Positions 16,109-32,966 of a stretch of 64,000 nt of DNA are shown one piece after another; within the stretch, counting starts at the first letter, position 1, and each line of letters opens with the position of its first letter. A program made the position numbers and the translations under genes. The notes under the pieces are model-generated. The model saw nothing but the letters and a program-made list of their open reading frames with translations. It ran no database searches and was not told the DNA's origin. The DNA comes from an uncultured Chromatiaceae bacterium (GTDB lineage: Bacteria; Pseudomonadota; Gammaproteobacteria; Tenderiales; Tenderiaceae), in NCBI GenBank assembly GCA_945787785.1, contig CALZIO010000001.1, forward strand, positions 61,169-125,168. Reading direction: 5' to 3'.

Positions 16109-16624
16109 ATGCCTGCAACAACAAAATATAGACATCTGACGAAGTTTCTTGGCGCCTCTGTCACCTGCTTTTTCATTGGCAGCATTCACGGGGTGCTTCA
16201 AATGCTCCCTCCGATTCGCGCCTGGCTAGATAGCATCGGCAGCCCTTATGGCGGTCCAGGCCATATGATCGATCCGCTGGCCCATGCCCATATCAATCTT
16301 ATCGGTGGAGTGATGATGCTGGCCATGGCAGTCACCTACTACTTGTTACCGCGTTTTACCGGCACCGAGATATGGTCACGCAAACTGGAAGACATCTCTT
16401 TTTGGCTAACCCTTCTCGGTGTCACCTGTTTTTACGGCAGCCTGTTGATCTTTGGCATCTGGGAAGGCCAGCTGCTACTGCAAGAAGGCGCCGAGCACAT
16501 AAACGAAGTACATAAGATTTATATCCCTATCGGCGCGCTGTCGGCCACCATCATGGGGATTGGCCTGTGGCTGTTCCTAGCAAACAGCGCCATGACTATA
16601 TTTAAATCCAGACACAATTCATGA
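16109..16624 (+). CDS. 4-TM membrane protein homologous to the C-terminal HxH helices of CcoN/heme-copper oxidase subunit I (mini-HCO, copy 1)
   Basis: 171 aa with four TM helices. The LAHAHINLIGG and SFWLTLLG motifs align with WIVAHAHLALLGF and FHFWFLLIGF of the CcoN-like protein at 27543..28949. Paralog at 30961..31479. Confidence 0.6.
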   Translation: MPATTKYRHLTKFLGASVTCFFIGSIHGVLQMLPPIRAWLDSIGSPYGGPGHMIDPLAHAHINLIGGVMMLAMAVTYYLLPRFTGTEIWSRKLEDISFWLTLLGVTCFYGSLLIFGIWEGQLLLQEGAEHINEVHKIYIPIGALSATIMGIGLWLFLANSAMTIFKSRHNS

Positions 16625-17133
16625 CACTGGAATGTGGCTGCCCTGAGCAGTTTCCCGACTGGGACAAGCAGGATGTGGACCTGGGAAGTGAAGCAATCAT
16701 TGAATTATCCATTCCAACATTTCTACACATGCCAATGGGCTACGAAGTCTATCTCGGCCGCGTACGACACCTAATCACACAGCTGGAGTTGGAGCCACGC
16801 TGGCCGAACTTTTATCTGACCCAAACCGGCTGGATGCGCGGCAGGATATTCTGCCCCTTAACATCTGGTGACTCACCTTCACGCCATGTCACACGTTTGC
16901 CCAGCCCGTTTCAACTGCGCGGCAAATTACATCAGGGGGATATTGGCAGCATCAAAAGCAGTGTTCGCGAAATGCAATCCGAGCTGCTCGACGCCGGACG
17001 CATGCCGAAAGAACTTTATCTTAGTTACCTGACCTGCCCTATTTGTCAGGGTAAGAGAGGGGGCGCCAAAACCATGTTATTACGCCGCTGGGAACAGAGT
17101 AGCCGCTTGAGCAAACGCGTCAATAAGTCATAG
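16621..17133 (+). CDS. Cys-rich hypothetical protein translationally coupled to mini-HCO
   Basis: 170 aa. Its start overlaps the upstream stop (ATGA). Has CGC and CPIC motifs. No family recognised. Confidence 0.45.
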   Translation: MTLECGCPEQFPDWDKQDVDLGSEAIIELSIPTFLHMPMGYEVYLGRVRHLITQLELEPRWPNFYLTQTGWMRGRIFCPLTSGDSPSRHVTRLPSPFQLRGKLHQGDIGSIKSSVREMQSELLDAGRMPKELYLSYLTCPICQGKRGGAKTMLLRRWEQSSRLSKRVNKS

Positions 17134-17865: not shown

Positions 17866-18299
17866 TAGCTCGGGTGCTTGTTATCAGTCTGCTTATGCTC
17901 TTCTTCGGTTTTGTCCAGATCGAGGCGGCCACCAAGTTTAGAGCCATACAGGCGCACCATGAAATAAACGAATATCGATGCCACTAGGAGATAAAGAATT
18001 GCTATGCCAAACCCCCAATCAATCCAGGCACGCTCATAACCCGGGCGATCACCCCAAAAGGGGAAACTCAAACCGATGGCCACCAACAACACCACGATCA
18101 CCACACCAATGAACCACTTCGGTATCCCCTTTTGCGACTCCGGGATTGACTCCAGCAGCTCCCAGTCTTCCATGCCTCGCTTGGCTAGCCGCTCTTCATC
18201 CGTGTCATAACCAAAATGGTCTTCCGGTGTTTTACCCCATTTGCTGTCAATCGAAGTCAACTTCTCTTTTGGCAAGGGCTTGTTCTGTTGCTCGCTCAT
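17865..18299 (-). CDS. membrane protein with FixP_N-like (CcoP N-terminal) domain and no heme motif
   Basis: 144 aa. QKGIPKWFIGVVIV..FPFWGDRP resembles the CcoP N-domain region NPLPRWWFLLFIG..YP. No CxxCH. Paralog at 25925..26554. Confidence 0.5.
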   Translation of the reverse strand: MSEQQNKPLPKEKLTSIDSKWGKTPEDHFGYDTDEERLAKRGMEDWELLESIPESQKGIPKWFIGVVIVVLLVAIGLSFPFWGDRPGYERAWIDWGFGIAILYLLVASIFVYFMVRLYGSKLGGRLDLDKTEEEHKQTDNKHPS

Positions 18300-19612
18300 A
18301 CGCTACCCGCTGAAAAATGTTGGAGGCGGAAACTGTCTTCCCAGCCGTCCTCGGATTTTACCCGCACCAGTATTGGATGCAGACCCTTTGGCAAATCAGG
18401 ACGTATGCTTAATTTCACATTGATACGCCCTGCGGTATCAAAATCGACCCAATCGTTCTGCAATGTGTAGGCATCTTGCTCCAGGCCTTCTATCGAAACG
18501 TACAACCGAGTCGGTTCATAAAATTTATTAGCTACCGAGATACGATAATCGAGAATTTTATCTGCCTGCAGAGTATCCGCACGGTAGGCCGACAGGTGAT
18601 ACCGCTCGTAGTCCCAAAATCCCCAGGCCATCAATAACACACCAATGATAAAAATAGGGAATGTCCAGGAGACTCGGGAGAATAGATCATTCACGTTAGT
18701 CTTGAAATAGGCAAAGCTTTGCCCCTGGCGCTCACCCATAGCAAATTTCAACAACCCCTGTTTGCCAGTCTCTTTACGTGCCTGCAAGGTGTCACAGGCA
18801 GTAATGCACTCACCACAGTTGATACAGGTATCATAGACATCCGTTTTGCGTGGATCGATTGCCAGAAAACAGGAGCTTACGCAGTAATTACATTTGGCGC
18901 ACTCATCCGAGCGTGTATCATCATAAGCCACATGCAGAGTCTGGCGAGTTTTGAAGGTATGTTGCCATACCTTGTAGATGCACATGAAACGGCACATAAA
19001 ATGACGAATCATGGTGATATCTACCAGGATCACCAGAAAGAAAACGGTATATATCCAATGTAGCGATGGCGCCAAACCAGGATCATACTGGAAGCTGACG
19101 AACTTCCAGATCAATATTGGATCATAAAAATAAAACAAGGGTATTAAGGCAACCAGAGCTGACACCCCAGCAGACAACAGAATCAAAATAATCCAATTTA
19201 GAGTCCTATTCTTTGCTGCCGACAGCTGCATTGGTGAGCCGTCCAGACTAATGTCGGCGCGTTTGCCCAACAGCTTGTGAGTCATGCGGTTAGCCCATTC
19301 CGACATGGTGTTCTGCGGACAGGCCCAACCACAAAACACCGTACCCATCACCGAATAGAGCATGGCCAACAGGCAGGCGACTGCGACCCAGAAACCGAAC
19401 ACAATACCAAAATCAGAAAACCAGATTTGCCGGCCCAGAATGACAAACGCGCCCTGAATTGGATCGATACGAAACAGGCCGCTCATCGGAATAAGCACCA
19501 GCAAGGCCATGACGGACAATTGAAAAGCACGGCGCTGCCAATGCAATTTATTTATCGACTTGCGGGATTCGACTAGAACGGGAATTTCACCCAACGTTTT
19601 GTTGGTACTCAT
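18296..19612 (-). CDS. ccoG: cbb3 oxidase accessory protein CcoG/FixG (4Fe-4S ferredoxin-type)
   Basis: 438 aa. TM helices with FCGWACPQ, plus two ferredoxin cysteine clusters: CAKCNYCVSSC and CINCGECITAC. Confidence 0.85.
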   Translation of the reverse strand: MSTNKTLGEIPVLVESRKSINKLHWQRRAFQLSVMALLVLIPMSGLFRIDPIQGAFVILGRQIWFSDFGIVFGFWVAVACLLAMLYSVMGTVFCGWACPQNTMSEWANRMTHKLLGKRADISLDGSPMQLSAAKNRTLNWIILILLSAGVSALVALIPLFYFYDPILIWKFVSFQYDPGLAPSLHWIYTVFFLVILVDITMIRHFMCRFMCIYKVWQHTFKTRQTLHVAYDDTRSDECAKCNYCVSSCFLAIDPRKTDVYDTCINCGECITACDTLQARKETGKQGLLKFAMGERQGQSFAYFKTNVNDLFSRVSWTFPIFIIGVLLMAWGFWDYERYHLSAYRADTLQADKILDYRISVANKFYEPTRLYVSIEGLEQDAYTLQNDWVDFDTAGRINVKLSIRPDLPKGLHPILVRVKSEDGWEDSFRLQHFSAGSV

Positions 19613-19674
19613 CGCCGTAATTTACCATGAAGGGGGCTTTTTTTCATCCGCAACACAACTCAGGGATATCGCTC

Positions 19675-22311
19675 TTAACGCTGTAAAACAGCATCCAACG
19701 GACTATATTTCTGTAACATTTGCCGGTATTCATCTGCCCGGCCCTTATTACCCTCAGCCAACTCCAGCTGCCACAACGCGCGCAAGGCATCGACGTGGTC
19801 AGGCCGGATAAATAGTATTGCTTCCAGCGTCTTACGTGGATCCGCTCCGCGCGCAGTCATGCTCTGCAGACTTACATACATACGATCAGCCAGGGCGCCA
19901 CTGACCCAACGGTCTTTAGGATTGGCTTGGTAAGCAAGTTGCAATAAGCGTTGCCCCTGACGCGCATCACCCTTTAGTTCAGCCACCCAGGCACGTAACG
20001 CGAGCTCTGTGGCCACATATCCGCGCTCGAATAACTCAGCCTGGGCCATTTCAACTTGCAAGGCCTGATGCGCCTGATTCAGATGAGGGCGTTGTTGCAA
20101 TAGCCACTCCATCAACACCACCAGGTCCATCTCACCTCGATAACGAGCCCGAGGCAGATGATATTCAATGACAGGCGCCCACTCACCCTGAACAGGACCT
20201 TCTGACAGCGTGACAGGGCCCCAGTAGCGTCCCAACCAACTCCAGACACCTTCACTACCCGTGATTTGCTGCTGTGCTGCCTGATCTAGCTTAGCCAGGC
20301 TTTGCAATGTTGTATGTACACTTACCCGCCATTGTTTACCACCCACCAGCGCCAAGCGAAAACCATCAACAAACATCAACGCATCCGGAAAAACCTGCTT
20401 AAAAGTGCGTAACACCACTTTGAGGGATTCGGGATCAAACTGATTCAATGCCAACCACTGCACAAACAAGCCACCTTCAACCAGACGCGATTTGGCTCGC
20501 TGAAATTGCTGTAACGACAACAAGGCACTGCGTCCGACCAAGTCCGGATGAAACAGATCACCGATAATCACATCGTAGCTTTGTGTTGTTGTTTGCAAAA
20601 AACGACGCGCATCGTCACGCACGATTTTCATTTTGTCGCTGATATCATCATTGACTGGCGCAAACCACACCTGTGCCGCCTCTATCGCCCCCTGCGACAA
20701 CTCGACTGCAGTACGTTCCAGCTGTGGATAGGGCAACGATGCCGCAGCCGAAATGCCTGTCCCCAGGCCAAGGAACAATACCTGCTGTGGATCCGGGTGC
20801 AGCAATAAAGGCAGACGCACCTGATTTTGTTGTGACACCACAGCCAGTGGCTCAGATGAAGCATCCATACGCTGCAAATCAGCCAGTAACAGACGTTGAC
20901 CATCTTCACGTTTAATTACATGAGTAATCGCCAGGGCATTTTCATGCACAAACAAGTCGCGACTATTGGCCTGCCCTTGTGGCAACAACTGATTGACAGC
21001 AGGCATTTGTGAAACAGGCCAGGCCAAGACCAGCAACAACGGCAATGCTATCCAACTTCGCTGCGCCGCCCATGCCATTCCAGAAATAAACAACAACAAC
21101 GCTGCCAGCACAATCGTCCCAACTGTGCCCAGCAACGGGACCAATACAAAGCCAGCGACCAACGCCCCTGCTGCGGCGCCGATGGAATTGGCACCATACA
21201 ATTTTGCACCTATCGATTTGTCCTGCCCCAGGCGTGCACTCAACAAAGGCAACCAAGCACCCAGCAACAGAGTCACTGGCAGAGTCAACAATGCGATTGC
21301 TATTCCCTGGGCCAACATTGCACCGGCCAGGGAGTTAAATTCACTCTGTTCCGCCCAGGCGGCTAACAATGGAATCAACCAGAGACTCAACAAGGCAAAC
21401 ACCGCGGTCGCAATTGGTAACACATCAAACCACCAACGCGCCAGCAACCGTCTCGCCAACAAACTGCCAACACCAATCCCCACCAAAAACACCGCCAGGA
21501 TGACCGCCATGACATACTCAGTGCGCAACAACAGCATGCCAAATAGGCGCGTCCAACCAACCTCCAGCATCAAGGCGGCGGCACCAACACCGGCATAGGC
21601 AAATAGTGTGATGAGGTTGATTGATGTTTTTGAAACCGGCTGATTGGAAACGGGCATTTCGAACTTACTCTGGCCTGACTGATTCCGGCGCGACAATAAC
21701 CACGCTGCTGCGCCTACAGCTATTCCTATCATGGCCACCAACCAAACACCCGCCACCCAGCCTAGCGTTGGTAATAGTAACAATGGCAGTAATGCACCAA
21801 TGGCACCACCACAGGTGTTCAGACCGTAAACCCAACTCAGTGACAGTGAAGTATGTTGCACCGCCCTTAACACGAGCGGAAAACCAATCCCCATCAATGT
21901 AGCTGGCAAGGTGATCAAGACGAGTGCTGCGATCAGCTGCATGGCATACCACAAGGATAAGCTCTCAGGTGCTAAATACGTTACCCCTCCATCAACCATG
22001 CGTAAGATGAATGGCAACACCAAGGCATAGAGCGCCACACTAACTTCGATAATCGCAAAAAGTCGCAATGGGTTTTGTCTGTTGTGGCTAATACGACCAC
22101 CCCATAATGCACCAATACCCAGACCCAGCATAAAGGCAGCGGCGCTAACAACAACCCCAAAAATACTGACACCGAATTGCAGCGATAGCATGCGTGCCCA
22201 CAACACCTGGTACGCCAGACCAACTGCACCGGAAAAAAAGTAAAGCGTCGCCACGCCTCTAGCAAAGGATGGGGCCGTTATAACCTGAGCTGGAACCACA
22301 ACAGACATCAA
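19675..22311 (-). CDS. multi-TM / spermidine-synthase-like / TPR fusion protein
   Basis: 878 aa. About 12 N-terminal TM helices, a central PABS-like domain (YDVIIGDLFHPD..GGLFVQW) and a C-terminal TPR-like helical region. Confidence 0.7.
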   Translation of the reverse strand: MMSVVVPAQVITAPSFARGVATLYFFSGAVGLAYQVLWARMLSLQFGVSIFGVVVSAAAFMLGLGIGALWGGRISHNRQNPLRLFAIIEVSVALYALVLPFILRMVDGGVTYLAPESLSLWYAMQLIAALVLITLPATLMGIGFPLVLRAVQHTSLSLSWVYGLNTCGGAIGALLPLLLLPTLGWVAGVWLVAMIGIAVGAAAWLLSRRNQSGQSKFEMPVSNQPVSKTSINLITLFAYAGVGAAALMLEVGWTRLFGMLLLRTEYVMAVILAVFLVGIGVGSLLARRLLARWWFDVLPIATAVFALLSLWLIPLLAAWAEQSEFNSLAGAMLAQGIAIALLTLPVTLLLGAWLPLLSARLGQDKSIGAKLYGANSIGAAAGALVAGFVLVPLLGTVGTIVLAALLLFISGMAWAAQRSWIALPLLLVLAWPVSQMPAVNQLLPQGQANSRDLFVHENALAITHVIKREDGQRLLLADLQRMDASSEPLAVVSQQNQVRLPLLLHPDPQQVLFLGLGTGISAAASLPYPQLERTAVELSQGAIEAAQVWFAPVNDDISDKMKIVRDDARRFLQTTTQSYDVIIGDLFHPDLVGRSALLSLQQFQRAKSRLVEGGLFVQWLALNQFDPESLKVVLRTFKQVFPDALMFVDGFRLALVGGKQWRVSVHTTLQSLAKLDQAAQQQITGSEGVWSWLGRYWGPVTLSEGPVQGEWAPVIEYHLPRARYRGEMDLVVLMEWLLQQRPHLNQAHQALQVEMAQAELFERGYVATELALRAWVAELKGDARQGQRLLQLAYQANPKDRWVSGALADRMYVSLQSMTARGADPRKTLEAILFIRPDHVDALRALWQLELAEGNKGRADEYRQMLQKYSPLDAVLQR

Positions 22312-22978: not shown

Positions 22979-24047
22979 TTACCCCTTCTTTTACATCCGC
23001 AGCACAACGAAAACCGAAAAAATCTGATGCATAATGTGGCCAGGAATAATTTCGGTGATAGGTGGTCGTAGAAAATGGGTCACTTTTCCAAGAGCCACCA
23101 CGCAACACTTTGTATTTGGCATCCACGCCCACTAAATCCACCACCTTCATGGCACGATCTGCGGGTGTAGAAGCGACTTGAATCTTGCCTTTAAAAATGT
23201 TCTGGTCTGCATCTGTGTTTTTATAGGGTAGAAAATCATCCTCAATCCACTCAGACACATTGCCAGCCATATCCATAACACCATACGGACTGGCACCATC
23301 AGAGTAACTCGTCACATCTGTGGTCGAACCCATATTGTAATAAGTATTGAGACGGGCTGTTTCCATCTGCTCACCCCAGGGCCAGCGCCGACCATCGTCG
23401 CCGCGCGCGGCTTTTTCCCATTCTGTTTCATGAGGCAAGCGCTTATTAGCCCAGGTACAATAGTTGCTGGCATCGTACCAGGAAATCATCGTCACCGGAT
23501 GCAATTCCATCCCTTCTTGTATGCGCCCATTTTCCCAATCAAGCGGCGGCCGATATCCATGCTCTGCAACAAAGCGAGCGTACTGGGCATTGGTGGTTGG
23601 GTATTTATCAATCTTATATTCGACTAGATTGACTTCATGTTTGGGATGATTCTGAGCGCTGGTTCTGATCCTGTCTGAGCCCATATAAAAAGGACCGGCA
23701 GGGATAGTTGCCATGCTATTGACCTCAACCCATTGCTCCGGACTTAACAGCGCCTCTACTTCTGCGAGACTATATGGTATCGTCTTTGCCCGGTCAGCCT
23801 CATGCCTTTCGTGCAGAGCTATATCTTCACCAGCAGCACGAATACGGCTATTCATTTCAGTCAGGTCATAGGTTGCCTTGCTAGACATTTCCTGGAAGAC
23901 GCGACTGTGACCCAAATCAACCACGTGAATCGCCCCACCCACCATGGCCAATGCGGCACACGTCACAAGAGTCGCACTTAGAAAGCGTTTACGTCTAGCC
24001 CGCTCCGTTACCGAGAGCTGACGTCTATTTTTATACTGCTTCTCCAT
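22965..24047 (-). CDS. membrane-anchored FGE-sulfatase (SUMF1/NirV-like) family protein
   Basis: 360 aa with an N-terminal TM. Motifs RLPHETEWEKAARG, MAGNVSEWIEDD, RVLRGGSW and GFRC match the FGE-sulfatase domain. Confidence 0.8.
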   Translation of the reverse strand: MEKQYKNRRQLSVTERARRKRFLSATLVTCAALAMVGGAIHVVDLGHSRVFQEMSSKATYDLTEMNSRIRAAGEDIALHERHEADRAKTIPYSLAEVEALLSPEQWVEVNSMATIPAGPFYMGSDRIRTSAQNHPKHEVNLVEYKIDKYPTTNAQYARFVAEHGYRPPLDWENGRIQEGMELHPVTMISWYDASNYCTWANKRLPHETEWEKAARGDDGRRWPWGEQMETARLNTYYNMGSTTDVTSYSDGASPYGVMDMAGNVSEWIEDDFLPYKNTDADQNIFKGKIQVASTPADRAMKVVDLVGVDAKYKVLRGGSWKSDPFSTTTYHRNYSWPHYASDFFGFRCAADVKEGVNADE

Positions 24048-24532
24048 TAACTTTCTGGGTCTGAAGGGCCGTTCTTAGAAGGCTGCTTATAGATCAAATG
24101 CTTCGGTCGTCGTCCATAGGTTCTTTTGATGACGATCTCACCAAACACACCACCAAATGCCGCCGCTTCAATAGCTACGATCAAAACCAGAATCCAGTAC
24201 CCAAACGGCAACAGGCCAACACCATCGGGCAACCCTTCGTAGTTCATCATTTGAATATAACTGTAACCACGGACGATGATAGGAACAAAATAACAAATCA
24301 ATTTACCGCCTAGGCCATAAACTAATGACACTACCATACCGGCAACAAATGGGACTAAAAACAGCGTTAATACCCACATCGGGCTAAAGGTCGAGACGCC
24401 AAAAAATAATTCCAGCCGTACACCCGGTGGCGGACTGAGATAATTCATTAAACGATCGCCAAAGTAATTTACAATTACACCAGCTGTAATGGCGACTGTA
24501 CCCATAACGATAGTCATTACACGGTTATTCAT
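24047..24532 (-). CDS. 4-TM membrane protein, unknown function
   Basis: 161 aa. Overlaps neighbouring genes by 1 nt and 8 nt, so translationally coupled. Confidence 0.5.
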   Translation of the reverse strand: MNNRVMTIVMGTVAITAGVIVNYFGDRLMNYLSPPPGVRLELFFGVSTFSPMWVLTLFLVPFVAGMVVSLVYGLGGKLICYFVPIIVRGYSYIQMMNYEGLPDGVGLLPFGYWILVLIVAIEAAAFGGVFGEIVIKRTYGRRPKHLIYKQPSKNGPSDPES

Positions 24533-25025
24533 TACTATCGCCTTGATACGACTCGCCAGTCAGTTTCTCAAACTCAGACTTTTTCACTTGATTTAAATAC
24601 CAGTCTTCAACCTTTAAGTTCGCCAGATATGCCGCCAGGGTTTTGCGATCTTCTTCAGGCAAATGGGAAAATGACGGCATTTGATATTCTGCTTTCAGCC
24701 GCGTTGGCAAAATCTGCTGTGGATCTGCTGCCGAAAGATAATCAAATAACCATGACTCATCACGCAGCGAACCGATCCCATCTAGAGCGGGTGCTGGCAC
24801 AGCCTGCATCGGATTCCGTACACCCCACAATGTGTGACAATCACGGCACTTTTGCTCCCGATAGAGTTCTCCACCCTTTTTCCGGACCTCGTTTGAGGCT
24901 GTACTATAAAAGGGAATTCCTTTATCCGGCTCAGTTTCTTGAGCTTGCCGATAACTATTTATACCTATAAACACAAAAACAATAACCGCGATTACAACCA
25001 GGATCCCTTTTTCACCTTTTCGCAT
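24525..25025 (-). CDS. membrane-anchored monoheme cytochrome c, NorC/CcoO-like
   Basis: 166 aa with an N-terminal TM. ELYREQKCRDCHTLWG resembles the NorC heme region. Paralog at 31494..32066. Confidence 0.7.
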   Translation of the reverse strand: MRKGEKGILVVIAVIVFVFIGINSYRQAQETEPDKGIPFYSTASNEVRKKGGELYREQKCRDCHTLWGVRNPMQAVPAPALDGIGSLRDESWLFDYLSAADPQQILPTRLKAEYQMPSFSHLPEEDRKTLAAYLANLKVEDWYLNQVKKSEFEKLTGESYQGDSNE

Positions 25026-25924: not shown

Positions 25925-26554
25925 TTAGTGTGCAACACTGTGATCAGGCTGCCAACTGTAGTGTGGCAGACGCTTGATGACTATCAGCACCGCAATACAG
26001 AAATAAGCTACGTAGAAGATATCGATGGTATAACCCTTATCCCACCAAGGCTGTTTACGTTCACGAGTACCATCTGCTTTCCAATTGCCTTCGAAATTAG
26101 CCAGGACGACATGCGGACCAACGACTGTGTATTCACCCAGGTCAACACCCTTACGTTGTAACTCAATAACCTGACCTTCAATCATACGCAGATCATCCAT
26201 CTCAAGCGGGTGACGATCCAGCTGCCCCTGAATTCTTGCATTAGAGCTTTTGCCATTAGCCACGATGTACTCCATCTTGGCCCTGTCCCCATCAATCGCC
26301 TGAACTGCTGGACTATTCATCAACTTCAAATAGTCCTCATAGATTTCAGCCGTTGGGCGTTGCCCCCAAAGAGGGAAGGTAACCAAAAAAGCGCTGATAA
26401 TTGTCAAGCCCAGCAACCACACAACCGGTGATGGCAGACGGTTATTATCTTCTGCAATTCCCCCTAAACTTTCACCTTCCCATACCTTGGTTGCTGCTGA
26501 ATTTTGCTCTTCGTCAGTCAACGAGTACAGCGGTTTATCCATTTTCCATGACAT
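25925..26554 (-). CDS. membrane protein with FixP_N-like domain only (CcoP lacking both cytochrome c domains)
   Basis: 209 aa. NNRLPSPVVWLLGLTIISAFLVTFPLWGQRP aligns with CcoP [26 protein letters not shown]. No CxxCH. Lies directly downstream of the ccoO-like gene. Confidence 0.6.
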   Translation of the reverse strand: MSWKMDKPLYSLTDEEQNSAATKVWEGESLGGIAEDNNRLPSPVVWLLGLTIISAFLVTFPLWGQRPTAEIYEDYLKLMNSPAVQAIDGDRAKMEYIVANGKSSNARIQGQLDRHPLEMDDLRMIEGQVIELQRKGVDLGEYTVVGPHVVLANFEGNWKADGTRERKQPWWDKGYTIDIFYVAYFCIAVLIVIKRLPHYSWQPDHSVAH

Positions 26555-26568
26555 TGTTATTCTCCCCC

Positions 26569-27519
26569 TTACTTCAGGCTCATGATGAAGTCGATAAGAT
26601 AGCGAATTTCGCTATCCGCTGCGTAGTTTGGCACATCCGGCGGTATGACAGTTTTGCCATGCGCGTAGTCATTGTATGCTGTTCTCCAGGCATCATAGTC
26701 GATAGCCTTACCATCAGCATCATTCTCACCCCAGAGGTAATCATAACGAGGCATGATTGAATGTGGTTGCACCAAACGAGGATTAAAAAAGTGCATCATC
26801 ATCCACTCTTTAGATGCGTTACGAGAACCAACATGCAACAAGTCAGGTGCTTTCCGGTCAGAACCAAAGGCTGTTGGCGATTCACCATTATAATCACCTA
26901 GACGTGGTGGAATCCCAAAATACTGCCAATCCTGAGTTTGTTCAGGCAGCAAGGTATGACACCACCAGCAACCTTCACGAACAAACATGATTTTACCCGA
27001 ACCAATCAAATGGGTATTTGCATCACCCGCCGCATTCAACACCTGACTAGGCTGCCAACCACGAGTCGCTGATGCGTTCTCGATGTAGTTAACAGTTTCG
27101 CCATTGTGAGTGGCACGACTAATTACAAACACAGCACCATTATCGTGGTTAGCCTCTTCAATACGACCCTGCGCTGTACTCAACTCCGTTGCACCTGGAC
27201 CCAGTGTACGAGGATGGTTAATCCCACTCGGGAAAGGAGTGCCAGCTTCATACACAAATGCCTGCACAGTTTCGATTGGCTCATTGGTTTTAGGATCTTT
27301 ATTCAGAACCACTGTCTTCGGCTTGCCGTCACCGCGTAAAAATGGATCTTCATATGAGAACCCACCAATGCGGCCATAAGACAACTGCTTCGTTAAGCCC
27401 ATTTCAGTTACGGCTACTGATGTCATATCCACTGTAGGCATGTACAGCGTAATAACCATCGAGCCACCCAAGGCTACACCAAACAGGCGTGAGCCAATTT
27501 TATATTCTCTAAATGCCAT
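26569..27519 (-). CDS. ccoO: CcoO-like monoheme subunit II of cbb3-type oxidase, with an insertion of about 110 aa
   Basis: 316 aa with an N-terminal TM. VREGCWWCH and PDLLHVGSRNASKEWMMMHFFNPRLVQPHSIMPRY align with CcoO regions EGCYLCHS and [35 protein letters not shown]. Confidence 0.8.
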   Translation of the reverse strand: MAFREYKIGSRLFGVALGGSMVITLYMPTVDMTSVAVTEMGLTKQLSYGRIGGFSYEDPFLRGDGKPKTVVLNKDPKTNEPIETVQAFVYEAGTPFPSGINHPRTLGPGATELSTAQGRIEEANHDNGAVFVISRATHNGETVNYIENASATRGWQPSQVLNAAGDANTHLIGSGKIMFVREGCWWCHTLLPEQTQDWQYFGIPPRLGDYNGESPTAFGSDRKAPDLLHVGSRNASKEWMMMHFFNPRLVQPHSIMPRYDYLWGENDADGKAIDYDAWRTAYNDYAHGKTVIPPDVPNYAADSEIRYLIDFIMSLK

Positions 27520-27542: not shown

Positions 27543-28949
27543 TTAACGTTCGTACGCCAATTCGTGTGGCAGACGGCCTTCTGGGATTTCAGTTCCGGCT
27601 TTAGCGGTCATATACATGTTGTACAACCAGACTATGTTACCGGTGAATACCATGGTGCCACCAATCCAACGCGCAATCATGTATGGATGTTCAGCGATTA
27701 CAACGTCAATATAGGGAACCTCGTAGATCTTACCTGCACCCTGAATCAAACCAGCGATGGTCATTGAAATCCAGTAGATTGCAAATCCGATCAGCAAGAA
27801 CCAGAAGTGGAAGTTAGCCAACGCCAGCGAATAAAGTTTACGACGCAGGATTGTTTGCAGACCGTAGTACACAGCCGCAGCTTCCAGAAATGTAGAGAAG
27901 CCAAGCAAGGCTAAATGAGCATGGGCAACGATCCAACCCGTACCATGGATATACCAGTTGATAGCACGTGTTTGTTGAAACCCACCTTGCATGTTCAGAG
28001 GAATCGCCAACATGACACCCGTGATGGTGTATTTGATTTCGACATTTTCCACAAACATGTGCCACTTACCAGTCATGGTCAACAGCAGGTTAGATACGAA
28101 AGCAATTGCAGGCACCAGGATCAACACCCCTTCTACAGAAGCGAATGACTTCAGCCACTCAGGCAAAGGCGCTGACATCAAATGGTGAGCCGCTGGTGTT
28201 GAGTAGAACACAACAACGGACCAAAAGTGCAAGTGACCAATACGATGCGAATAAAGCGGGTTACCGGTTACTTTTGGTACAGTGTAGTAAGCAATCGCCG
28301 CTGCGATTGGTGTAATCCAAAGACCTAATACATTGTGCGCAAACCACCATGTCAGGTATGCCTCACTCAAACCGGTCAGATTGAAGAACTCAGGGCTGTT
28401 ACCTACGATAAAAACGATGGTAACCATGAACACGCCAGCACCAAAGAACCAGTTAGTTGTATAGATGCCCTGGGTACGACGTTTGAGGATAGTCATCCAA
28501 ACGTTAAGCGCCATAGGTAATGCAATAAATGCAGCAATGTACAAATCTATAGCCCATGGAAAATCTGAATACTCACGACCAGAAGTCATACCGAACCACA
28601 GCAGAGTAAGGCCCAACGACAGACCGACGTTCCACAAGAAGCAGTTCCATACACCGAGTTTTTCAGACCACAGCTTGGTATTACCCAGCGCAGGCGTGAT
28701 GTACATCATTGCCATGGCGAATGCCATAGAAATCCAGCCAAAAATTACTGCCAGTACGTGAACCTGACGCATGTGACCGAACGAAAACAACTCAGAACCT
28801 GTCACAAAATCAGGAAATGCCAGTTTGGCCGCGTTAAACGATCCCAAACCAGTACCAACCACAAACCAAATAATAGACGAGAAACCAAAGAATACCGCTG
28901 CCGTACCTGGCGGGATATCCTCATTTCTTCTAAATAGATATTTCAACAT
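27543..28949 (-). CDS. ccoN: cbb3-type (C-family) heme-copper oxidase subunit I, CcoN-like
   Basis: 468 aa with 12 TM helices. Carries GHMRQVH, WWFAHN, FYSTPAAHH (Tyr six residues before the HH pair) and VAHAH. Confidence 0.85.
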   Translation of the reverse strand: MLKYLFRRNEDIPPGTAAVFFGFSSIIWFVVGTGLGSFNAAKLAFPDFVTGSELFSFGHMRQVHVLAVIFGWISMAFAMAMMYITPALGNTKLWSEKLGVWNCFLWNVGLSLGLTLLWFGMTSGREYSDFPWAIDLYIAAFIALPMALNVWMTILKRRTQGIYTTNWFFGAGVFMVTIVFIVGNSPEFFNLTGLSEAYLTWWFAHNVLGLWITPIAAAIAYYTVPKVTGNPLYSHRIGHLHFWSVVVFYSTPAAHHLMSAPLPEWLKSFASVEGVLILVPAIAFVSNLLLTMTGKWHMFVENVEIKYTITGVMLAIPLNMQGGFQQTRAINWYIHGTGWIVAHAHLALLGFSTFLEAAAVYYGLQTILRRKLYSLALANFHFWFLLIGFAIYWISMTIAGLIQGAGKIYEVPYIDVVIAEHPYMIARWIGGTMVFTGNIVWLYNMYMTAKAGTEIPEGRLPHELAYER

Positions 28950-29451: not shown

Positions 29452-29781
29452 GATTCCCCTCCATTTGCGGTTTGGTCAACCCATTAACAGTATTGTAGCC
29501 TTCCAACTCCATCTGAATTCACCTTTGAGCCCCCCTCTCAGGTTTCTTTTTGACAGATTTACACTTCAAAATTGGAAGCCAACTCTGACCAGCGATATTT
29601 GCATATCTATTACAAACCAGTCAAGCGCTTTTTAAAAACAACCAACAGATTTTACTAAACTATTCTAGTAATTTTTCGCTCTCATTGATTAACTGTATAA
29701 TTCCTGCACAATTCACAGCCTGCACTCATCTTGCTTTAATTGATAAATCAGACTGGTACAGCAAATATACAGGGAATTTTG

Positions 29782-29976
29782 ATGAAGGAAATTATTATTT
29801 ATTCGATTGCGGCAATTGCAGTAATCACGGTGTTTGGCTACTCAATCCACATGTTTATTGGCGGGTTTGTTGAACCACAAACAGAAACACTTATTATCAC
29901 CGCTGGCTGCATATTTGCTGCCACTGTAATTGGCTTTCTTACCTGGGATATTATTAAGAAGAGACGCGGCAGCTAA
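29782..29976 (+). CDS. small 2-TM protein (64 aa)
   Basis: Start at the internal ATG of ORF 29740..29976. Transcribed divergently from the ccoN unit. Confidence 0.3.
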   Translation: MKEIIIYSIAAIAVITVFGYSIHMFIGGFVEPQTETLIITAGCIFAATVIGFLTWDIIKKRRGS

Positions 29977-29997: not shown

Positions 29998-30453
29998 TTA
30001 TTTGTATACTGACAAATGCGAGCGAACATCTTTAAAGTCCGACTCTTGCATAAATTGACCGCGGTGAAAAACAAACTGACGCTTCTTCCCTGACAGATCC
30101 ATACCCACCAAGCCAAACGATTTTCCTGCGTAATCAGGGAAATAACGAAGATCTTTTACCAGCTCCACTCGCTCTCCGCCGTTAACTGTAACTGCTACGG
30201 ACTTTTTCTGTAATTCAAGCCCGCGCGGAGATTTCGGCAATAACATCAGCCGAGTTCCCAGAATCCGGTTTGCGCCTATCAGAAAGATGAAAGTTGCCAG
30301 AAAAACAAGTACGTATGCCATAGTCTGGTCACCGCTGTACCAGGTTTTTGCTGCATAAGATGCCAGCACCAACACGACAGGCACATACAGCAGGGCATCC
30401 CAAGCCGCCCCGCGCTTATCTGAAGCCAGGTTATAGTTTTCTACTTTCGCCAT
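29998..30453 (-). CDS. membrane-anchored hypothetical protein
   Basis: 151 aa with two N-terminal TM helices and a soluble C-terminal domain. Its start abuts the stop of the thioredoxin-like gene. Confidence 0.5.
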   Translation of the reverse strand: MAKVENYNLASDKRGAAWDALLYVPVVLVLASYAAKTWYSGDQTMAYVLVFLATFIFLIGANRILGTRLMLLPKSPRGLELQKKSVAVTVNGGERVELVKDLRYFPDYAGKSFGLVGMDLSGKKRQFVFHRGQFMQESDFKDVRSHLSVYK

Positions 30454-30983
30454 TAACCTGTCTCAGAGCCAAGAACTTTCTTAAGCGTATACTCCAGCTC
30501 GCCGTACAGAACCCGTCCAGCCTGCTTGTACTGCACCACCTGATTTTCATCAATCACGTAAGTCCAGGGGTCACCCATGACCTTAAATGCCTTGAATGCT
30601 TCAGGGTTTTGATACTGATCCATATGCAGGAATATCACATCGTCGCCATAGACTTCCATTATCCCTTTCAACATCTGCAGCTGTTTATCGCAGACGGTAC
30701 AGTGTCCGGGCGTCGCAAATTCAAGCACAATAGGTTTACCTTGCGCCAAGGCATCATCCAGCGAATACTGGTACATTCTCTCATCAGGGTGGCGGTAACT
30801 GGTAATGCGACTGAAATCCCCGCCCACATCGGCTAAAGTCTTGGTCTTTACCTGAGGAGCAGTTGACCCCACTTGCAGCGAACCCTCAGGTGAGGCGCCA
30901 CAACCAACCAGTAATAAAGTAACTGACAACCCTAACAGGAACCGCATCATAGCCGCTCTCCTAATAATTCTTTTCCCAACCAA
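30453..30983 (-). CDS. TlpA/ResA-like thioredoxin-fold lipoprotein (CxxC)
   Basis: 176 aa with lipobox LLVGC. HCTVC redox motif in a thioredoxin-fold context (VLEFATPGHCTVC). Confidence 0.65.
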   Translation of the reverse strand: MVGKRIIRRAAMMRFLLGLSVTLLLVGCGASPEGSLQVGSTAPQVKTKTLADVGGDFSRITSYRHPDERMYQYSLDDALAQGKPIVLEFATPGHCTVCDKQLQMLKGIMEVYGDDVIFLHMDQYQNPEAFKAFKVMGDPWTYVIDENQVVQYKQAGRVLYGELEYTLKKVLGSETG

Positions 30984-31479
30984 TACAGGTTCTGACCAGA
31001 TTATATGCCCAGATACAGTTAGCTAACAGCACCATGGTTCCAAACAAACCCATCATAGCCAGCCATGGCTTGACTATCTGCTCCACTTCATCTGGTGACA
31101 TTGAAATGCTTGCCGTACCACCTAAGATGCCCGCAATTGTAAATAACAATACCATCCCAATCAAACCGGTATTATGGATCCAAAAATGCACTTTAACTAA
31201 GGTAACACTGTATATATGTCGCTTAACTAAGCGCGGAATAATGTAGTAAACGCCAGCAAAAATGGCCATTTCCACCCAGCCCAACAGATTTATATGAGTA
31301 TGAGCGCGCACAATCAGATTGCCATGTAAGCGATGGTCAACAAAATGGCGGAAATCTGATATCCCCCCCATTAATGCCCCCCAGGAAAAACCAATAAGAC
31401 TATATATAATGCAGCAGTATACAAACCAGAGAGTATATCGAATATAAACCTTATCCTCTGCCCAAGGTTGACCACTCAC
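30961..31479 (-). CDS. 4-TM mini-HCO paralog (C-terminal CcoN-like helices with HTH motif), copy 2
   Basis: 172 aa. RAHTHINLLGW and VHFWIHNTGLIGMVLLFTIAGILGG align with CcoN WIVAHAHLALLGF and FHFWFLLIGFAIYWISMTIAGLIQG. Confidence 0.6.
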   Translation of the reverse strand: MSGQPWAEDKVYIRYTLWFVYCCIIYSLIGFSWGALMGGISDFRHFVDHRLHGNLIVRAHTHINLLGWVEMAIFAGVYYIIPRLVKRHIYSVTLVKVHFWIHNTGLIGMVLLFTIAGILGGTASISMSPDEVEQIVKPWLAMMGLFGTMVLLANCIWAYNLVRTCIGWEKNY

Positions 31480-31493
31480 GCTATTACCCCCTA

Positions 31494-32066
31494 CTACTTT
31501 TCTTCTGCTTGTTTTTCACGCACATCCTGATACTTATCGCCCCAGTCATCAGGAGCAACCATCTTTAACATGCTATCAATAAACTGAGACTTCCCTTCAG
31601 GCGGGAGCGCTGATGAAGCAGAACCCTGCTCCGCCTTCAGACCAAAAAGGAACGAAGCTATTGCATGCAGATCTTCATCTGACATTTCAGCAACATAAGC
31701 AGCTTCTTTTGGCGGCATCCCATGATCAATTGTCATGGCCCCATAGGTATCTTCAGGTTTTTTTAGAAATGAATAGATCCAGTCAAAGCTGCGTTTCGAG
31801 CCAAGCCCATCAAGTGACAACCCCATGTTAGTGCCATTACGCATCGCTCGATGACATGAAGTACAACGCGCCTCACGAAAGATCTGAGTTCCACGCCGCC
31901 CTTCTTCATCAAACTCATAGTGGGTCTTGACCTCGAACATAGGCTTGTCTGAATTAAGACGCACAAACTCCAGCACAGCATAACCGATAACTGCCGCGAC
32001 TATGAACGCCCCAAATATTCCAAACAGGACCTTTTCACCCTGTTTTAACGACTGCTTTCCAGACAT
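31494..32066 (-). CDS. membrane-anchored monoheme cytochrome c, NorC-like (paralog of 24525..25025)
   Basis: 190 aa with an N-terminal TM and CTSCH. QIFREARCTSCHRAM..LSLDGLGSKRSFDWIYSFL parallels the paralog. Confidence 0.7.
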   Translation of the reverse strand: MSGKQSLKQGEKVLFGIFGAFIVAAVIGYAVLEFVRLNSDKPMFEVKTHYEFDEEGRRGTQIFREARCTSCHRAMRNGTNMGLSLDGLGSKRSFDWIYSFLKKPEDTYGAMTIDHGMPPKEAAYVAEMSDEDLHAIASFLFGLKAEQGSASSALPPEGKSQFIDSMLKMVAPDDWGDKYQDVREKQAEEK

Positions 32067-32112: not shown

Positions 32113-32138
32113 CGCCACGAACAAAAAAGGCGGTTAAC
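32113..32138 (-). terminator. rho-independent terminator after cytochrome c4 gene
   Basis: On the minus strand: GGCGG-gttaa-CCGCC stem followed by a T6 run. A second strong hairpin (11-bp stem) lies at 32151..32180. Confidence 0.5.
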
Positions 32139-32201
32139 CCGCCTTTTAGATTGCCAGGGTGCAAATAAGTTGCACCCTGGATATTGTTAAAACACTAAAA
32201 A

Positions 32202-32966
32202 CTAGGGCAGATGCTCAACCGGAATTCGAGAGTTACCCATAGTTGTTTGAGGCGCTTGAGTCAGAAAAGTCGCAACATTCAGAATATCCTCATCCGTCAG
32301 CTTCTGGGCAACTATCTGCATTTGTTTCATTGGGTCATTAGCCCGTGATCCATCACGCCATTTCTTCAGCTGGCTAACCAAGTAAGTAAACTTCTGCTCA
32401 CCAATGCGTGGGTACATTGGATCTACGCCGCGGCCGTTGTGACCATGGCATGATAAACACGCAGGAATACCACGATCCAGATCACCGTAATTGACTAAAG
32501 CTTTACCAAGGTGGGATTCACCAATTTCAGTACCACTTTCTTTCAGAGCAGCGATATCTGAACCACCACTTGCTTCTTGTAACTCTGTCCCGCTGAAAAT
32601 ACGACCAATTGAGTTCAGGTAAGCCGCAACATCCTTGCGATCCTGAGGGCTCAGACCCTTGGCATTCGCATTCATCACAAACATGGTTGTGTCCTGACGT
32701 CTGTCGTTGGCATAATCATCTAGCTGCTTAGCCAGAAACATATAAATTTGACCTGCCAGACGAGGCGTACCCATCATGTCATTACCCATGCCGTCGGCAC
32801 CGTGACATGAAGTACAGGCAGGCACATCACCCTTGCCGTTTTCAAATATTGATTTGCCGCTGTTTAAATCAGCACCAGTCACTGAACCACTAGCGAAAGC
32901 TGGTGATACTGCCACAGCCATTGCAACGATTGACGCCGACCCCAATTTCTTTAAATAAGTGCGCAT
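32202..32966 (-). CDS. diheme cytochrome c4-type
   Basis: 254 aa with signal peptide and two CxxCH motifs (CTSCH and CLSCH) in repeated cytochrome-c-like halves. Confidence 0.8.
   Translation of the reverse strand: MRTYLKKLGSASIVAMAVAVSPAFASGSVTGADLNSGKSIFENGKGDVPACTSCHGADGMGNDMMGTPRLAGQIYMFLAKQLDDYANDRRQDTTMFVMNANAKGLSPQDRKDVAAYLNSIGRIFSGTELQEASGGSDIAALKESGTEIGESHLGKALVNYGDLDRGIPACLSCHGHNGRGVDPMYPRIGEQKFTYLVSQLKKWRDGSRANDPMKQMQIVAQKLTDEDILNVATFLTQAPQTTMGNSRIPVEHLP

Follow-up and report, generated by a model that had tools for sequence, protein, structure and literature searches.

A four-helix relative of heme-copper oxidase subunit I encoded with an anchored cytochrome c beside a divergent cbb3 oxidase

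The closest described system is that of the cathode-oxidising bacterium Candidatus Tenderia electrophaga, in which a divergent cbb3 cluster has been found among the most highly expressed loci (PMC5371394). In Table S1 of that study the diheme cytochrome Tel_00405 is assigned as Cyc1, while a monoheme cytochrome and a truncated CcoN are listed together as "Complex IV (1)" (PMC5371394). The region also appears in a figure of Eddie et al., where ALP51724.1 is labelled "truncated CcoN", ALP51725.1 is labelled "Thioredoxin" and a second truncated CcoN lies at the far end, and the region is suggested to be "a sort of alternative complex IV" (Eddie et al., bioRxiv 10.1101/2022.05.06.490989). Here we describe the corresponding locus in a 64,000-nucleotide (nt) stretch of DNA from an uncultured Chromatiaceae bacterium (contig CALZIO010000001.1, positions 61,169 to 125,168 of the forward strand), referred to below as the window, and in particular a small gene whose product is related to subunit I of the heme-copper oxidases (HCO) and is here called the mini-HCO. 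ALP51724.1 (Tel_00415) is its orthologue by synteny, with Cyc1, the monoheme cytochrome, the truncated CcoN and the thioredoxin in the same order, and in both papers it carries a label only, without residue analysis, family analysis or experiment (bioRxiv 10.1101/2022.05.06.490989; PMC5371394). The locus is thus already in print and its discovery is not what is reported here; a functional test of the mini-HCO or of the truncated CcoN was not found in the literature. Judged against the literature searched, three points appear to be new, namely that the mini-HCO would belong to a broad single-unit family rather than being a truncated CcoN, that its HxH motif can be mapped onto the metal ligands of helices II, VI and X of the oxidase, and that fused three-unit relatives are predicted to reproduce the whole fold.

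The mini-HCO is encoded in a four-gene unit composed of an anchored monoheme cytochrome c, the mini-HCO, an HCxxC thioredoxin-fold lipoprotein and a two-helix protein, which sits between a Cyc1-like diheme cytochrome and divergent cbb3 ccoNO genes. The features of this unit, in order of transcription, are as follows.

31494..32066, minus strand: membrane-anchored monoheme cytochrome c of 190 amino acids (aa), with CTSCH and an N-terminal hydrophobic segment (Pfam Cytochrom_C, 38.3 bits); first gene of the unit
30961..31479, minus strand: mini-HCO (copy 2), 172 aa, with four transmembrane (TM) helices corresponding to helices IX-XII of HCO subunit I and a predicted N-in/C-in topology
31294..31302, minus strand: codons of H60-T61-H62 (the HxH pair), aligned by sequence to H345/H347 of P. 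stutzeri CcoN
30951..30963, minus strand: junction TAGGAGAGCGGCT, in which the mini-HCO stop codon TAG lies within the AGGAG ribosome-binding site of the thioredoxin gene
30453..30950, minus strand: thioredoxin-fold lipoprotein, 165 aa from the ATG at 30950, with the lipobox LLVGC and the motif FATPgHCTxCD (lower case, nearly invariant residue; x, variable residue)
29998..30453, minus strand: 151-aa protein whose hydrophobic segments predict two TM helices, with a soluble domain at the C terminus; encoded by the final gene of the unit

The 172-aa open reading frame named in the initial annotation is present on the minus strand with a GTG start codon, and a GGGGG run lies 7 nt upstream of it. 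Both of its motifs are in place, with RAHTHINLLGW at residues 58-68 and VHFWIHNTGLIGMVLLFTIAGILGG at residues 97-121, and the CcoN string offered for comparison was located in the 468-aa CcoN of the window (27543..28949), and hhalign pairs this string with its counterpart in the mini-HCO. Among 5.8 billion proteins searched, 762 homologues of ~170 aa were found; the best 120 of these 762 share 72-85% identity with the mini-HCO and are nearly all ~170 aa, and the named ones among them are called "cbb3-type cytochrome c oxidase subunit I". In comparison with eight related loci, nonsynonymous divergence (dN) of the mini-HCO is 0.056-0.175, which is about half that of the neighbouring CcoO, thioredoxin and cytochrome c, with synonymous sites saturated. 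Given 762 homologues of ~170 aa and a low dN at saturated synonymous divergence, the reading frame is far beyond chance, and on these sequence grounds the mini-HCO is a real gene for a very strongly conserved membrane protein.

By sequence comparison the mini-HCO is a domain-level homologue of HCO subunit I that fails its defining features, which are twelve helices, the CuB ligands and the equivalog score. Its match to Pfam COX1 (PF00115) reaches 66.5 bits (E = 2.6e-18, cut-off 34.8) and covers only model positions 311-435 of 436, corresponding to helices IX-XII, and against the CcoN equivalog TIGR00780 it scores 51.2 bits versus a cut-off of 583, with residues 57-168 aligned to model positions 341-461. 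An AlphaFold model of the protein consists of four long helices (predicted local distance difference test, pLDDT, 80.5), and its best fold matches are cbb3 CcoN and the nitric oxide reductases. The distribution of charges fits an N-in/C-in topology, which would turn the histidine-rich loop and the HxH pair towards the periplasm, as in the oxidases. When compared with the CcoN of 3mk7, the mini-HCO is homologous to helices IX-XII and keeps the HxH of helix X, the histidine eight residues before it and the HFW start of helix XI; it differs in having four helices rather than twelve and in lacking the helix II histidine in cis, the CuB ligands and the cross-linked tyrosine, and it is only ~30% identical to the CcoN of the window. 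A twelve-helix core is not present in this protein of 172 aa and four helices, which has no equivalents of the helices that bear the CuB/FeB ligands (one histidine on helix VI and two on helix VII) and the helix II histidine. Lacking the CuB ligands, the mini-HCO cannot be an oxidase alone and cannot reduce O2 as oxidases do. Another family of four-helix proteins of similar size is DUF2871 (PF11070), to which the mini-HCO shows a weak match over its whole length (E = 0.011, residues 22-159 versus model positions 7-128 of 134) and for which some of its orthologues have a precomputed match; the score of 16.5 bits is nevertheless below the cut-off of 27.4, and the match adds nothing on mechanism.

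The initial annotation had named loss of the HxH residues from orthologues as the observation that would speak against it, and this objection fails because none of 120 homologue clusters departs from H60 or H62; both are also kept in divergent metagenome loci. When the orthologue profile was aligned with P. stutzeri CcoN (3mk7_A), residues 59-167 were matched to its residues 344-461, so that H60 corresponds to H345 and H62 to H347, the heme b3 and heme b ligands of the published cbb3 structure. When the mini-HCO profile was compared by hhalign with the CcoN family of the window, units 3, 1 and 2 of the latter were matched at 98%, 87% and 75% probability, respectively. In the unit alignments the partner of H60 is the histidine of helix II, which is the second ligand of heme b, and the partner of H62 is the histidine of helix VI, one of the CuB ligands. 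By these alignments the metal-ligand histidines of helices II, VI and X all map to the one HxH pair. Further invariant residues are C23, H98, H102, G30, G34, G38, R44, D48, R50, R58 and E70. Among these, H98 and H102 at the start of TM3 are the only invariant histidines besides the HxH pair, while three histidines of the periplasmic loop (H45, H49 and H52), which lie near H60/H62, are 88-96% conserved. The three glycines form an invariant glycine zipper in TM1, and R44, D48, R50 and R58 are located in the periplasmic loop; the zipper together with the loop arginines and aspartate would suit tight helix packing and contacts with heme propionates.

The protein also has relatives well beyond its own orthologues. 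In an exhaustive HMMER scan of 1.84 billion representatives, the orthologue group amounts to about one cluster at 50% identity, and many other single-unit proteins of 130-210 aa were found, which share 25-55% identity and carry H-x-H-x-N-L-L-G-W. The name mini-HCO is used here as an informal grouping for proteins of ~130-210 aa with four TM helices and H-x-H-x-x-x-[LIVMFA]-G-[WFA] on the second helix, to which copy 2 belongs by virtue of its HTHINLLGW. Among the multi-unit relatives (P0131, P0142, P0144, P0145 and others), those with two units are 273-281 aa long, and proteins of ~390-435 aa match the query three times, with HxH in every unit; Pfam reads the latter as three separate partial COX1 matches. 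The model of the three-unit protein P0131 (pLDDT 90.3, predicted template modelling score 0.90), which has no CuB ligands, superposes on entire CcoN chains with a TM-score of 0.80, suggesting that three units make the whole oxidase fold. All six histidines are kept in 31 of the 42 three-unit sequences, and where histidines have been lost, the losses sometimes pair the second histidine of unit i with the first of unit i+1, with single losses about as frequent. A rough neighbour-joining tree, built without support values, places the mini-HCO among the single-unit proteins and not inside the clade of CcoN unit 3. The three- and two-unit genes, seen in three contexts (L090, L091 and L092), stand alone without respiratory or oxidase neighbours, so that there is no general tie between the family and oxidase operons. 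Their neighbours include PilZ, phospholipase D-like and signalling genes, and no clue to function was gained from this context. A metagenome scan for a 47%-identical relative gave 7 loci only, of which the informative ones are divergent copies of the same operon, and a literature search on single-unit or threefold-repeat oxidase relatives, on DUF2871 and on the combination of Cyc1, Mariprofundus and thioredoxin found nothing relevant.

The four-gene unit was compared across 80 genomic loci from Ca. Tenderia, other gammaproteobacterial metagenome-assembled genomes and Zetaproteobacteria/Mariprofundaceae. The cytochrome c stop lies 14 nt before the mini-HCO start, and this order with a 14-nt gap recurs in 77-78 of the 80 loci. 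The CxxCH of the cytochrome is conserved in 78 sequences. It had been described as NorC-like, which holds for its architecture and for the gene order and not for its family, since searches of Pfam and NCBIfam gave no match to FixO (PF02433) or NorC and hhalign to the CcoO family of the cluster returned a probability of 3%; a CcoO/NorC homologue at this position is thus unsupported. As in the NorC-NorB and CcoO-CcoN pairs, a monoheme cytochrome c anchored by a single helix is encoded beside a membrane protein of the HCO fold, with the differences that the cytochrome is here without FixO/NorC homology and that its membrane partner is a third of the fold. In norCB the cytochrome gene likewise comes first and is followed by the HCO gene. 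A search of PDB with the cytochrome c found nothing informative.

Directly downstream of the mini-HCO and fixed there across the loci is the CxxC thioredoxin lipoprotein reported in the initial annotation. It belongs to the thioredoxin-fold oxidoreductases by profile and by its CxxC, with matches to Pfam Thioredoxin (24.5 bits, cut-off 23.5) and AhpC-TSA (27.2 bits, cut-off 26) that are both just above threshold, and its HCTxC is invariant in 76 sequences. Its nearest solved relatives are DsbE/CcmG and thioredoxins at weak E-values, with weak similarity to MauD, and among the NCBIfam equivalogs no DsbE, ResA or MauD match was obtained (dsbE, 21 versus 123 bits), nor was a Sco/SenC match. Like TlpA, CcmG (DsbE) and ResA it has a thioredoxin fold, a CxxC, a membrane tether and a periplasmic location, but its active site is an invariant HCTxC as opposed to WCxxC. 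Conserved YRHPDE and HMDQY stretches accompany the invariant histidine directly before the CxxC, and these features could point to metal binding rather than simple disulfide exchange.

The translational coupling proposed for these two genes is real in that they are tightly joined, whereas the 23-nt overlap proposed with it requires a TTG start at 30983, which is unlikely. The likely start is the ATG at 30950, which lies 7 nt after AGGAG (the TAGGAG spans the mini-HCO stop) and 10 nt after the stop, and at which the signal peptide and lipobox begin; in addition, a close relative (L002) has an in-frame stop codon upstream of the thioredoxin ATG, and in the annotation of Tenderia electrophaga the thioredoxin gene starts 12 nt after the stop. 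Tight coupling is indicated by candidate starts that overlap the mini-HCO stop by 1 or 4 nt (-1 or -4) in most of the 80 loci. The 151-aa protein overlaps the thioredoxin stop by 1 nt with its start, is found at the same position in 75 of the 80 loci, and has no match in Pfam, NCBIfam or PDB. The families CcoS, CcoH, CcoI, CcoG, SenC and PCuAC are not among the Pfam and NCBIfam matches of the mini-HCO or of its three operon partners.

The surroundings of the unit are also well conserved. The common order in these loci begins with a diheme cytochrome, the monoheme cytochrome c, the mini-HCO, the thioredoxin, the 151-aa protein and a small gene on the opposite strand, and continues with a 93-aa protein, ccoN, ccoO, a heme-less CcoP-like protein, small proteins, a second anchored cytochrome c and an FGE-domain protein. 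In every locus that extends far enough, the mini-HCO is found ~2 kb upstream of ccoNO, and in divergent high-GC metagenome contigs the first five genes are in the same order. Median identity to the window across the loci is 86% for CcoN, 76% for the mini-HCO, 65% for CcoO, 62% for the thioredoxin, 59% for the monoheme cytochrome c and 48% for the 151-aa protein, and the mini-HCO is thus the most conserved gene of the cluster after CcoN. The neighbouring features in the window, together with the second mini-HCO gene, are as follows.

32202..32966, minus strand: diheme cytochrome c4 with two Cytochrom_C domains, Cyc1 orthologue by synteny, upstream of the unit
32125..32147, minus strand: terminator-like hairpin AAAAGGCGG-TTAAC-CCGCCTTTT with a T run behind it, in the gap that separates cyc1 from the cytochrome c gene, from a consensus scan only
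29740..29976, plus strand: hydrophobic open reading frame of 78 aa between the four-gene unit and ccoN, at the same position in 65 of the 80 loci
27543..28949, minus strand: divergent cbb3-type CcoN, 468 aa, full length (Pfam COX1 254.9 bits, model positions 3-436), which the unit always accompanies
26569..27519, minus strand: CcoO-like monoheme subunit, 316 aa (Pfam FixO 65.8 bits, residues 169-272 only)
25925..26554, minus strand: CcoP-like protein, 209 aa, with a weak match to the N-terminal FixP_N segment only and no CxxCH
16109..16624, plus strand: mini-HCO copy 1, 171 aa, with HAHINLIGG and a partial Pfam COX1 match of 54.1 bits

The CcoN of the window scores 230 bits against TIGR00780, which is under the cut-off of 583, and shows 78-96% identity across the loci. 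Since the CcoP-like protein has no CxxCH, the oxidase appears to have no heme-bearing CcoP. The CcoO-like subunit has an N-terminal extension of ~165 residues outside the FixO profile match. The 78-aa reading frame is probably a real small membrane protein, given that it is kept in 65 of the loci. Further along the cluster, the second anchored cytochrome (24525..25025, minus strand, 166 aa) is a paralogue of the 190-aa cytochrome (hhalign probability 99.3%) and overlaps by 8 nt a 161-aa hydrophobic protein, probably of four helices, that is followed by an FGE-sulfatase-domain protein. This four-helix protein (24047..24532) was considered as a degenerate mini-HCO beside the paralogous cytochrome, and no relationship was found. 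At 18296..22311 on the minus strand, a CcoG-like polyferredoxin (438 aa) is encoded with an 878-aa polytopic membrane protein that has a spermidine-synthase-like domain and is conserved at least in locus L088. Copy 1 shows that the mini-HCO of the unit was rightly described as the second of two paralogs, with 29% identity between them (tblastn, E = 6e-8). Copy 1 overlaps by 4 nt a gene for a 170-aa cysteine-rich protein (span of both 16109..17133, plus strand; Pfam PF20603 "Bacterial hydrolase", 35.3 bits), and its set of partners differs from that of copy 2. The Tenderia orthologue of copy 1, Tel_00520, shows a weaker correlation of expression with copy 2 (r = 0.63).

Published RNA sequencing of Ca. 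Tenderia electrophaga allows expression of the orthologous genes to be compared (PMC5371394 supplementary tables). Length-normalised log2 expression of the four unit genes is 10.1, 9.6, 10.6 and 10.0, with 13.25 for CcoN and 12.8 for Cyc1. The hairpin at 32125..32147, itself a consensus match only, fits the ~6-fold drop in normalised expression between Tel_00405 and Tel_00410-00425. Across eight samples the mini-HCO orthologue correlates with its operon partners at r = 0.92-0.98 and with two flanking control genes at r = -0.55 and 0.31. The co-expression with ccoN that the initial annotation had proposed to look for is seen at r = 0.87 (n = 8), with a range of 0.85-0.87 for ccoN and ccoO, at a far lower level of expression than ccoN; with n = 8 and sample effects common to all genes of the organism, these correlations are supportive only.

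From homology, residue conservation, operon structure, synteny and co-expression we infer heme binding, an oligomeric state, a partnership with the cytochrome and a link to the oxidase, and the reading that we tentatively put first is that the mini-HCO may bind heme b and form, probably as an oligomer, the core of a small cytochrome b/c module that serves or stands beside the cbb3 oxidase. HCO subunit I is made up of three four-helix repeat units, and in this model the mini-HCO would be a free-standing version of one of them; H60/H62 would bind b-type heme at the subunit interfaces of a homo-oligomer, most likely a trimer, which would rebuild a 12-helix oxidase-like core. The invariant ligand pair, the loop arginines and aspartate, the glycine-rich helices and a conservation above that of CcoO suggest a cofactor-binding protein whose surfaces are largely buried, and the fused three-unit relatives make a trimer the most economical guess; by analogy with the P0131 model, three copies would pack into twelve helices with the HxH helices at the centre. 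The anchored cytochrome c, being adjacent and equally expressed, is the obvious candidate for the electron partner, and this co-translated protein would dock on the mini-HCO from the periplasmic side, in the manner of NorC on NorB or of CcoO on CcoN. Completion or maturation of the low-abundance module would fall to the thioredoxin-fold lipoprotein and the two-helix protein, and in bacteria that oxidise iron or cathodes the module would operate side by side with the cbb3 oxidase encoded next to it.

Several observations count against this model. The structure prediction of the mini-HCO is weakest around the HxH pair (pLDDT 47-52, residues 41-60), and AlphaFold cannot show heme. The trimer is an analogy with fused relatives at 35-43% identity, whose function may differ since they are without respiratory neighbours, and the histidine losses in three-unit proteins follow the predicted inter-unit pairs only partly. 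In addition, the cytochrome c is not detectably homologous to CcoO/NorC, and the mRNA of the mini-HCO orthologue is ~12-fold (length-normalised) below that of ccoN, which, taken with the thiol-disulfide oxidoreductase encoded next to it, also fits a role in assembly.

Such a role, which the initial annotation had suggested, is the strongest of the alternatives, and we regard it as possible, with a probability below that of the cytochrome b/c module. As part of an assembly or maturation unit, the mini-HCO would mimic a heme-binding unit of CcoN and would hold heme b/b3, or copper by means of its histidine-rich periplasmic loop, or would cap an assembly intermediate, while maturation of the divergent cbb3 oxidase would draw on the HCxxC lipoprotein for reducing equivalents or Cu(I). 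The low transcript level, sub-stoichiometric yet co-varying with ccoN, and the thiol-disulfide oxidoreductase would both be explained by such a factor, and the linkage to ccoNO in every locus with enough downstream sequence, the weak similarity of the lipoprotein to DsbE/CcmG and MauD, the well-conserved H45, H49 and H52 beside H60/H62, and the presence of other maturation-type genes in the wider cluster (the CcoG-like polyferredoxin and the FGE-domain protein) are all in keeping with it. Assembly, however, leaves a dedicated and equally expressed c-type cytochrome unexplained; the mini-HCO is more conserved than CcoO, its three-unit relatives occur without oxidase genes nearby, and in Pfam and NCBIfam no similarity to CcoS, CcoH, CcoI or SenC is seen. 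The dedicated cytochrome, the conservation above CcoO and the oxidase-free three-unit relatives fit a cofactor-binding functional subunit at least as well as an assembly role.

A bolder version of the cytochrome b/c module, which we consider unlikely, is that the mini-HCO is a living single-unit form of the HCO building block before triplication, acting as a three-heme, copper-free trimeric "proto-oxidase" with its own cytochrome c beside a modern cbb3 oxidase. Three copies would form a 12-helix ring with a b heme at each interface, ligated by one copy through its second histidine and by the adjacent copy through its first. Heme b of the oxidases is held in the same manner, by the second histidine of helix X and the histidine of helix II. 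One of the three sites of the ring would have become the heme b3-CuB centre of the oxidases, and one would have been lost.

Slightly less likely still is a stoichiometric accessory subunit of CcoNO, in which the mini-HCO would be a peripheral four-helix subunit on CcoN, like subunit III or the CcoH/CcoM helices. A conservation second only to CcoN, as is seen for co-evolving partners, the constant synteny and the correlation of expression with ccoN and ccoO (r = 0.85-0.87) would agree with this arrangement, but the mini-HCO belongs to a separate transcription unit, with an opposite-strand gene between it and ccoN, its transcript is ~12-fold lower, and a purely structural role would not need invariant heme-ligand histidines. 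A heme-based gas or redox sensor, or regulator of the oxidase, in which heme would be bound by one histidine and the open sixth position would bind O2, NO or CO, seems improbable. As purely indirect support, H60 corresponds to the ligand of the five-coordinate heme b3, and signalling genes (PilZ, response regulators, CHASE2-guanylate cyclase) occur in two of the three neighbourhoods seen for three- and two-unit genes, but these neighbours are few and their conservation is not established, the mini-HCO is without an output domain, and the conserved four-gene unit contains no regulator gene. Finally, a pseudogene or decaying, functionless fragment of a duplicated ccoN, as suggested by the literature label "truncated CcoN" and by pipelines that annotate it as cbb3 subunit I, is effectively refuted by the conservation data (full-length homologues of ~170 aa; dN of 0.056-0.175 with saturated dS, the synonymous divergence) together with transcription in Tenderia, and recent truncation of the adjacent ccoN is ruled out by the ~30% identity between the two and by the position outside the CcoN unit-3 clade, in a tree that is rough and without support values.

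Because the cluster is highly expressed in Tenderia and common to marine iron-oxidising Zetaproteobacteria, every conserved member of it is a candidate part of a lifestyle based on very low-energy electron donors. If the mini-HCO is an assembly factor, it would be one of a new kind, which mimics part of its own client. The mini-HCO also bears on oxidase evolution, as one-, two- and three-unit relatives of subunit I keep the heme-ligand histidines in each unit. If these proteins bind heme as predicted, the proposal that a heme-binding four-helix protein gave rise by triplication to the HCO fold and to its metal sites would become testable with proteins that can be expressed and purified.

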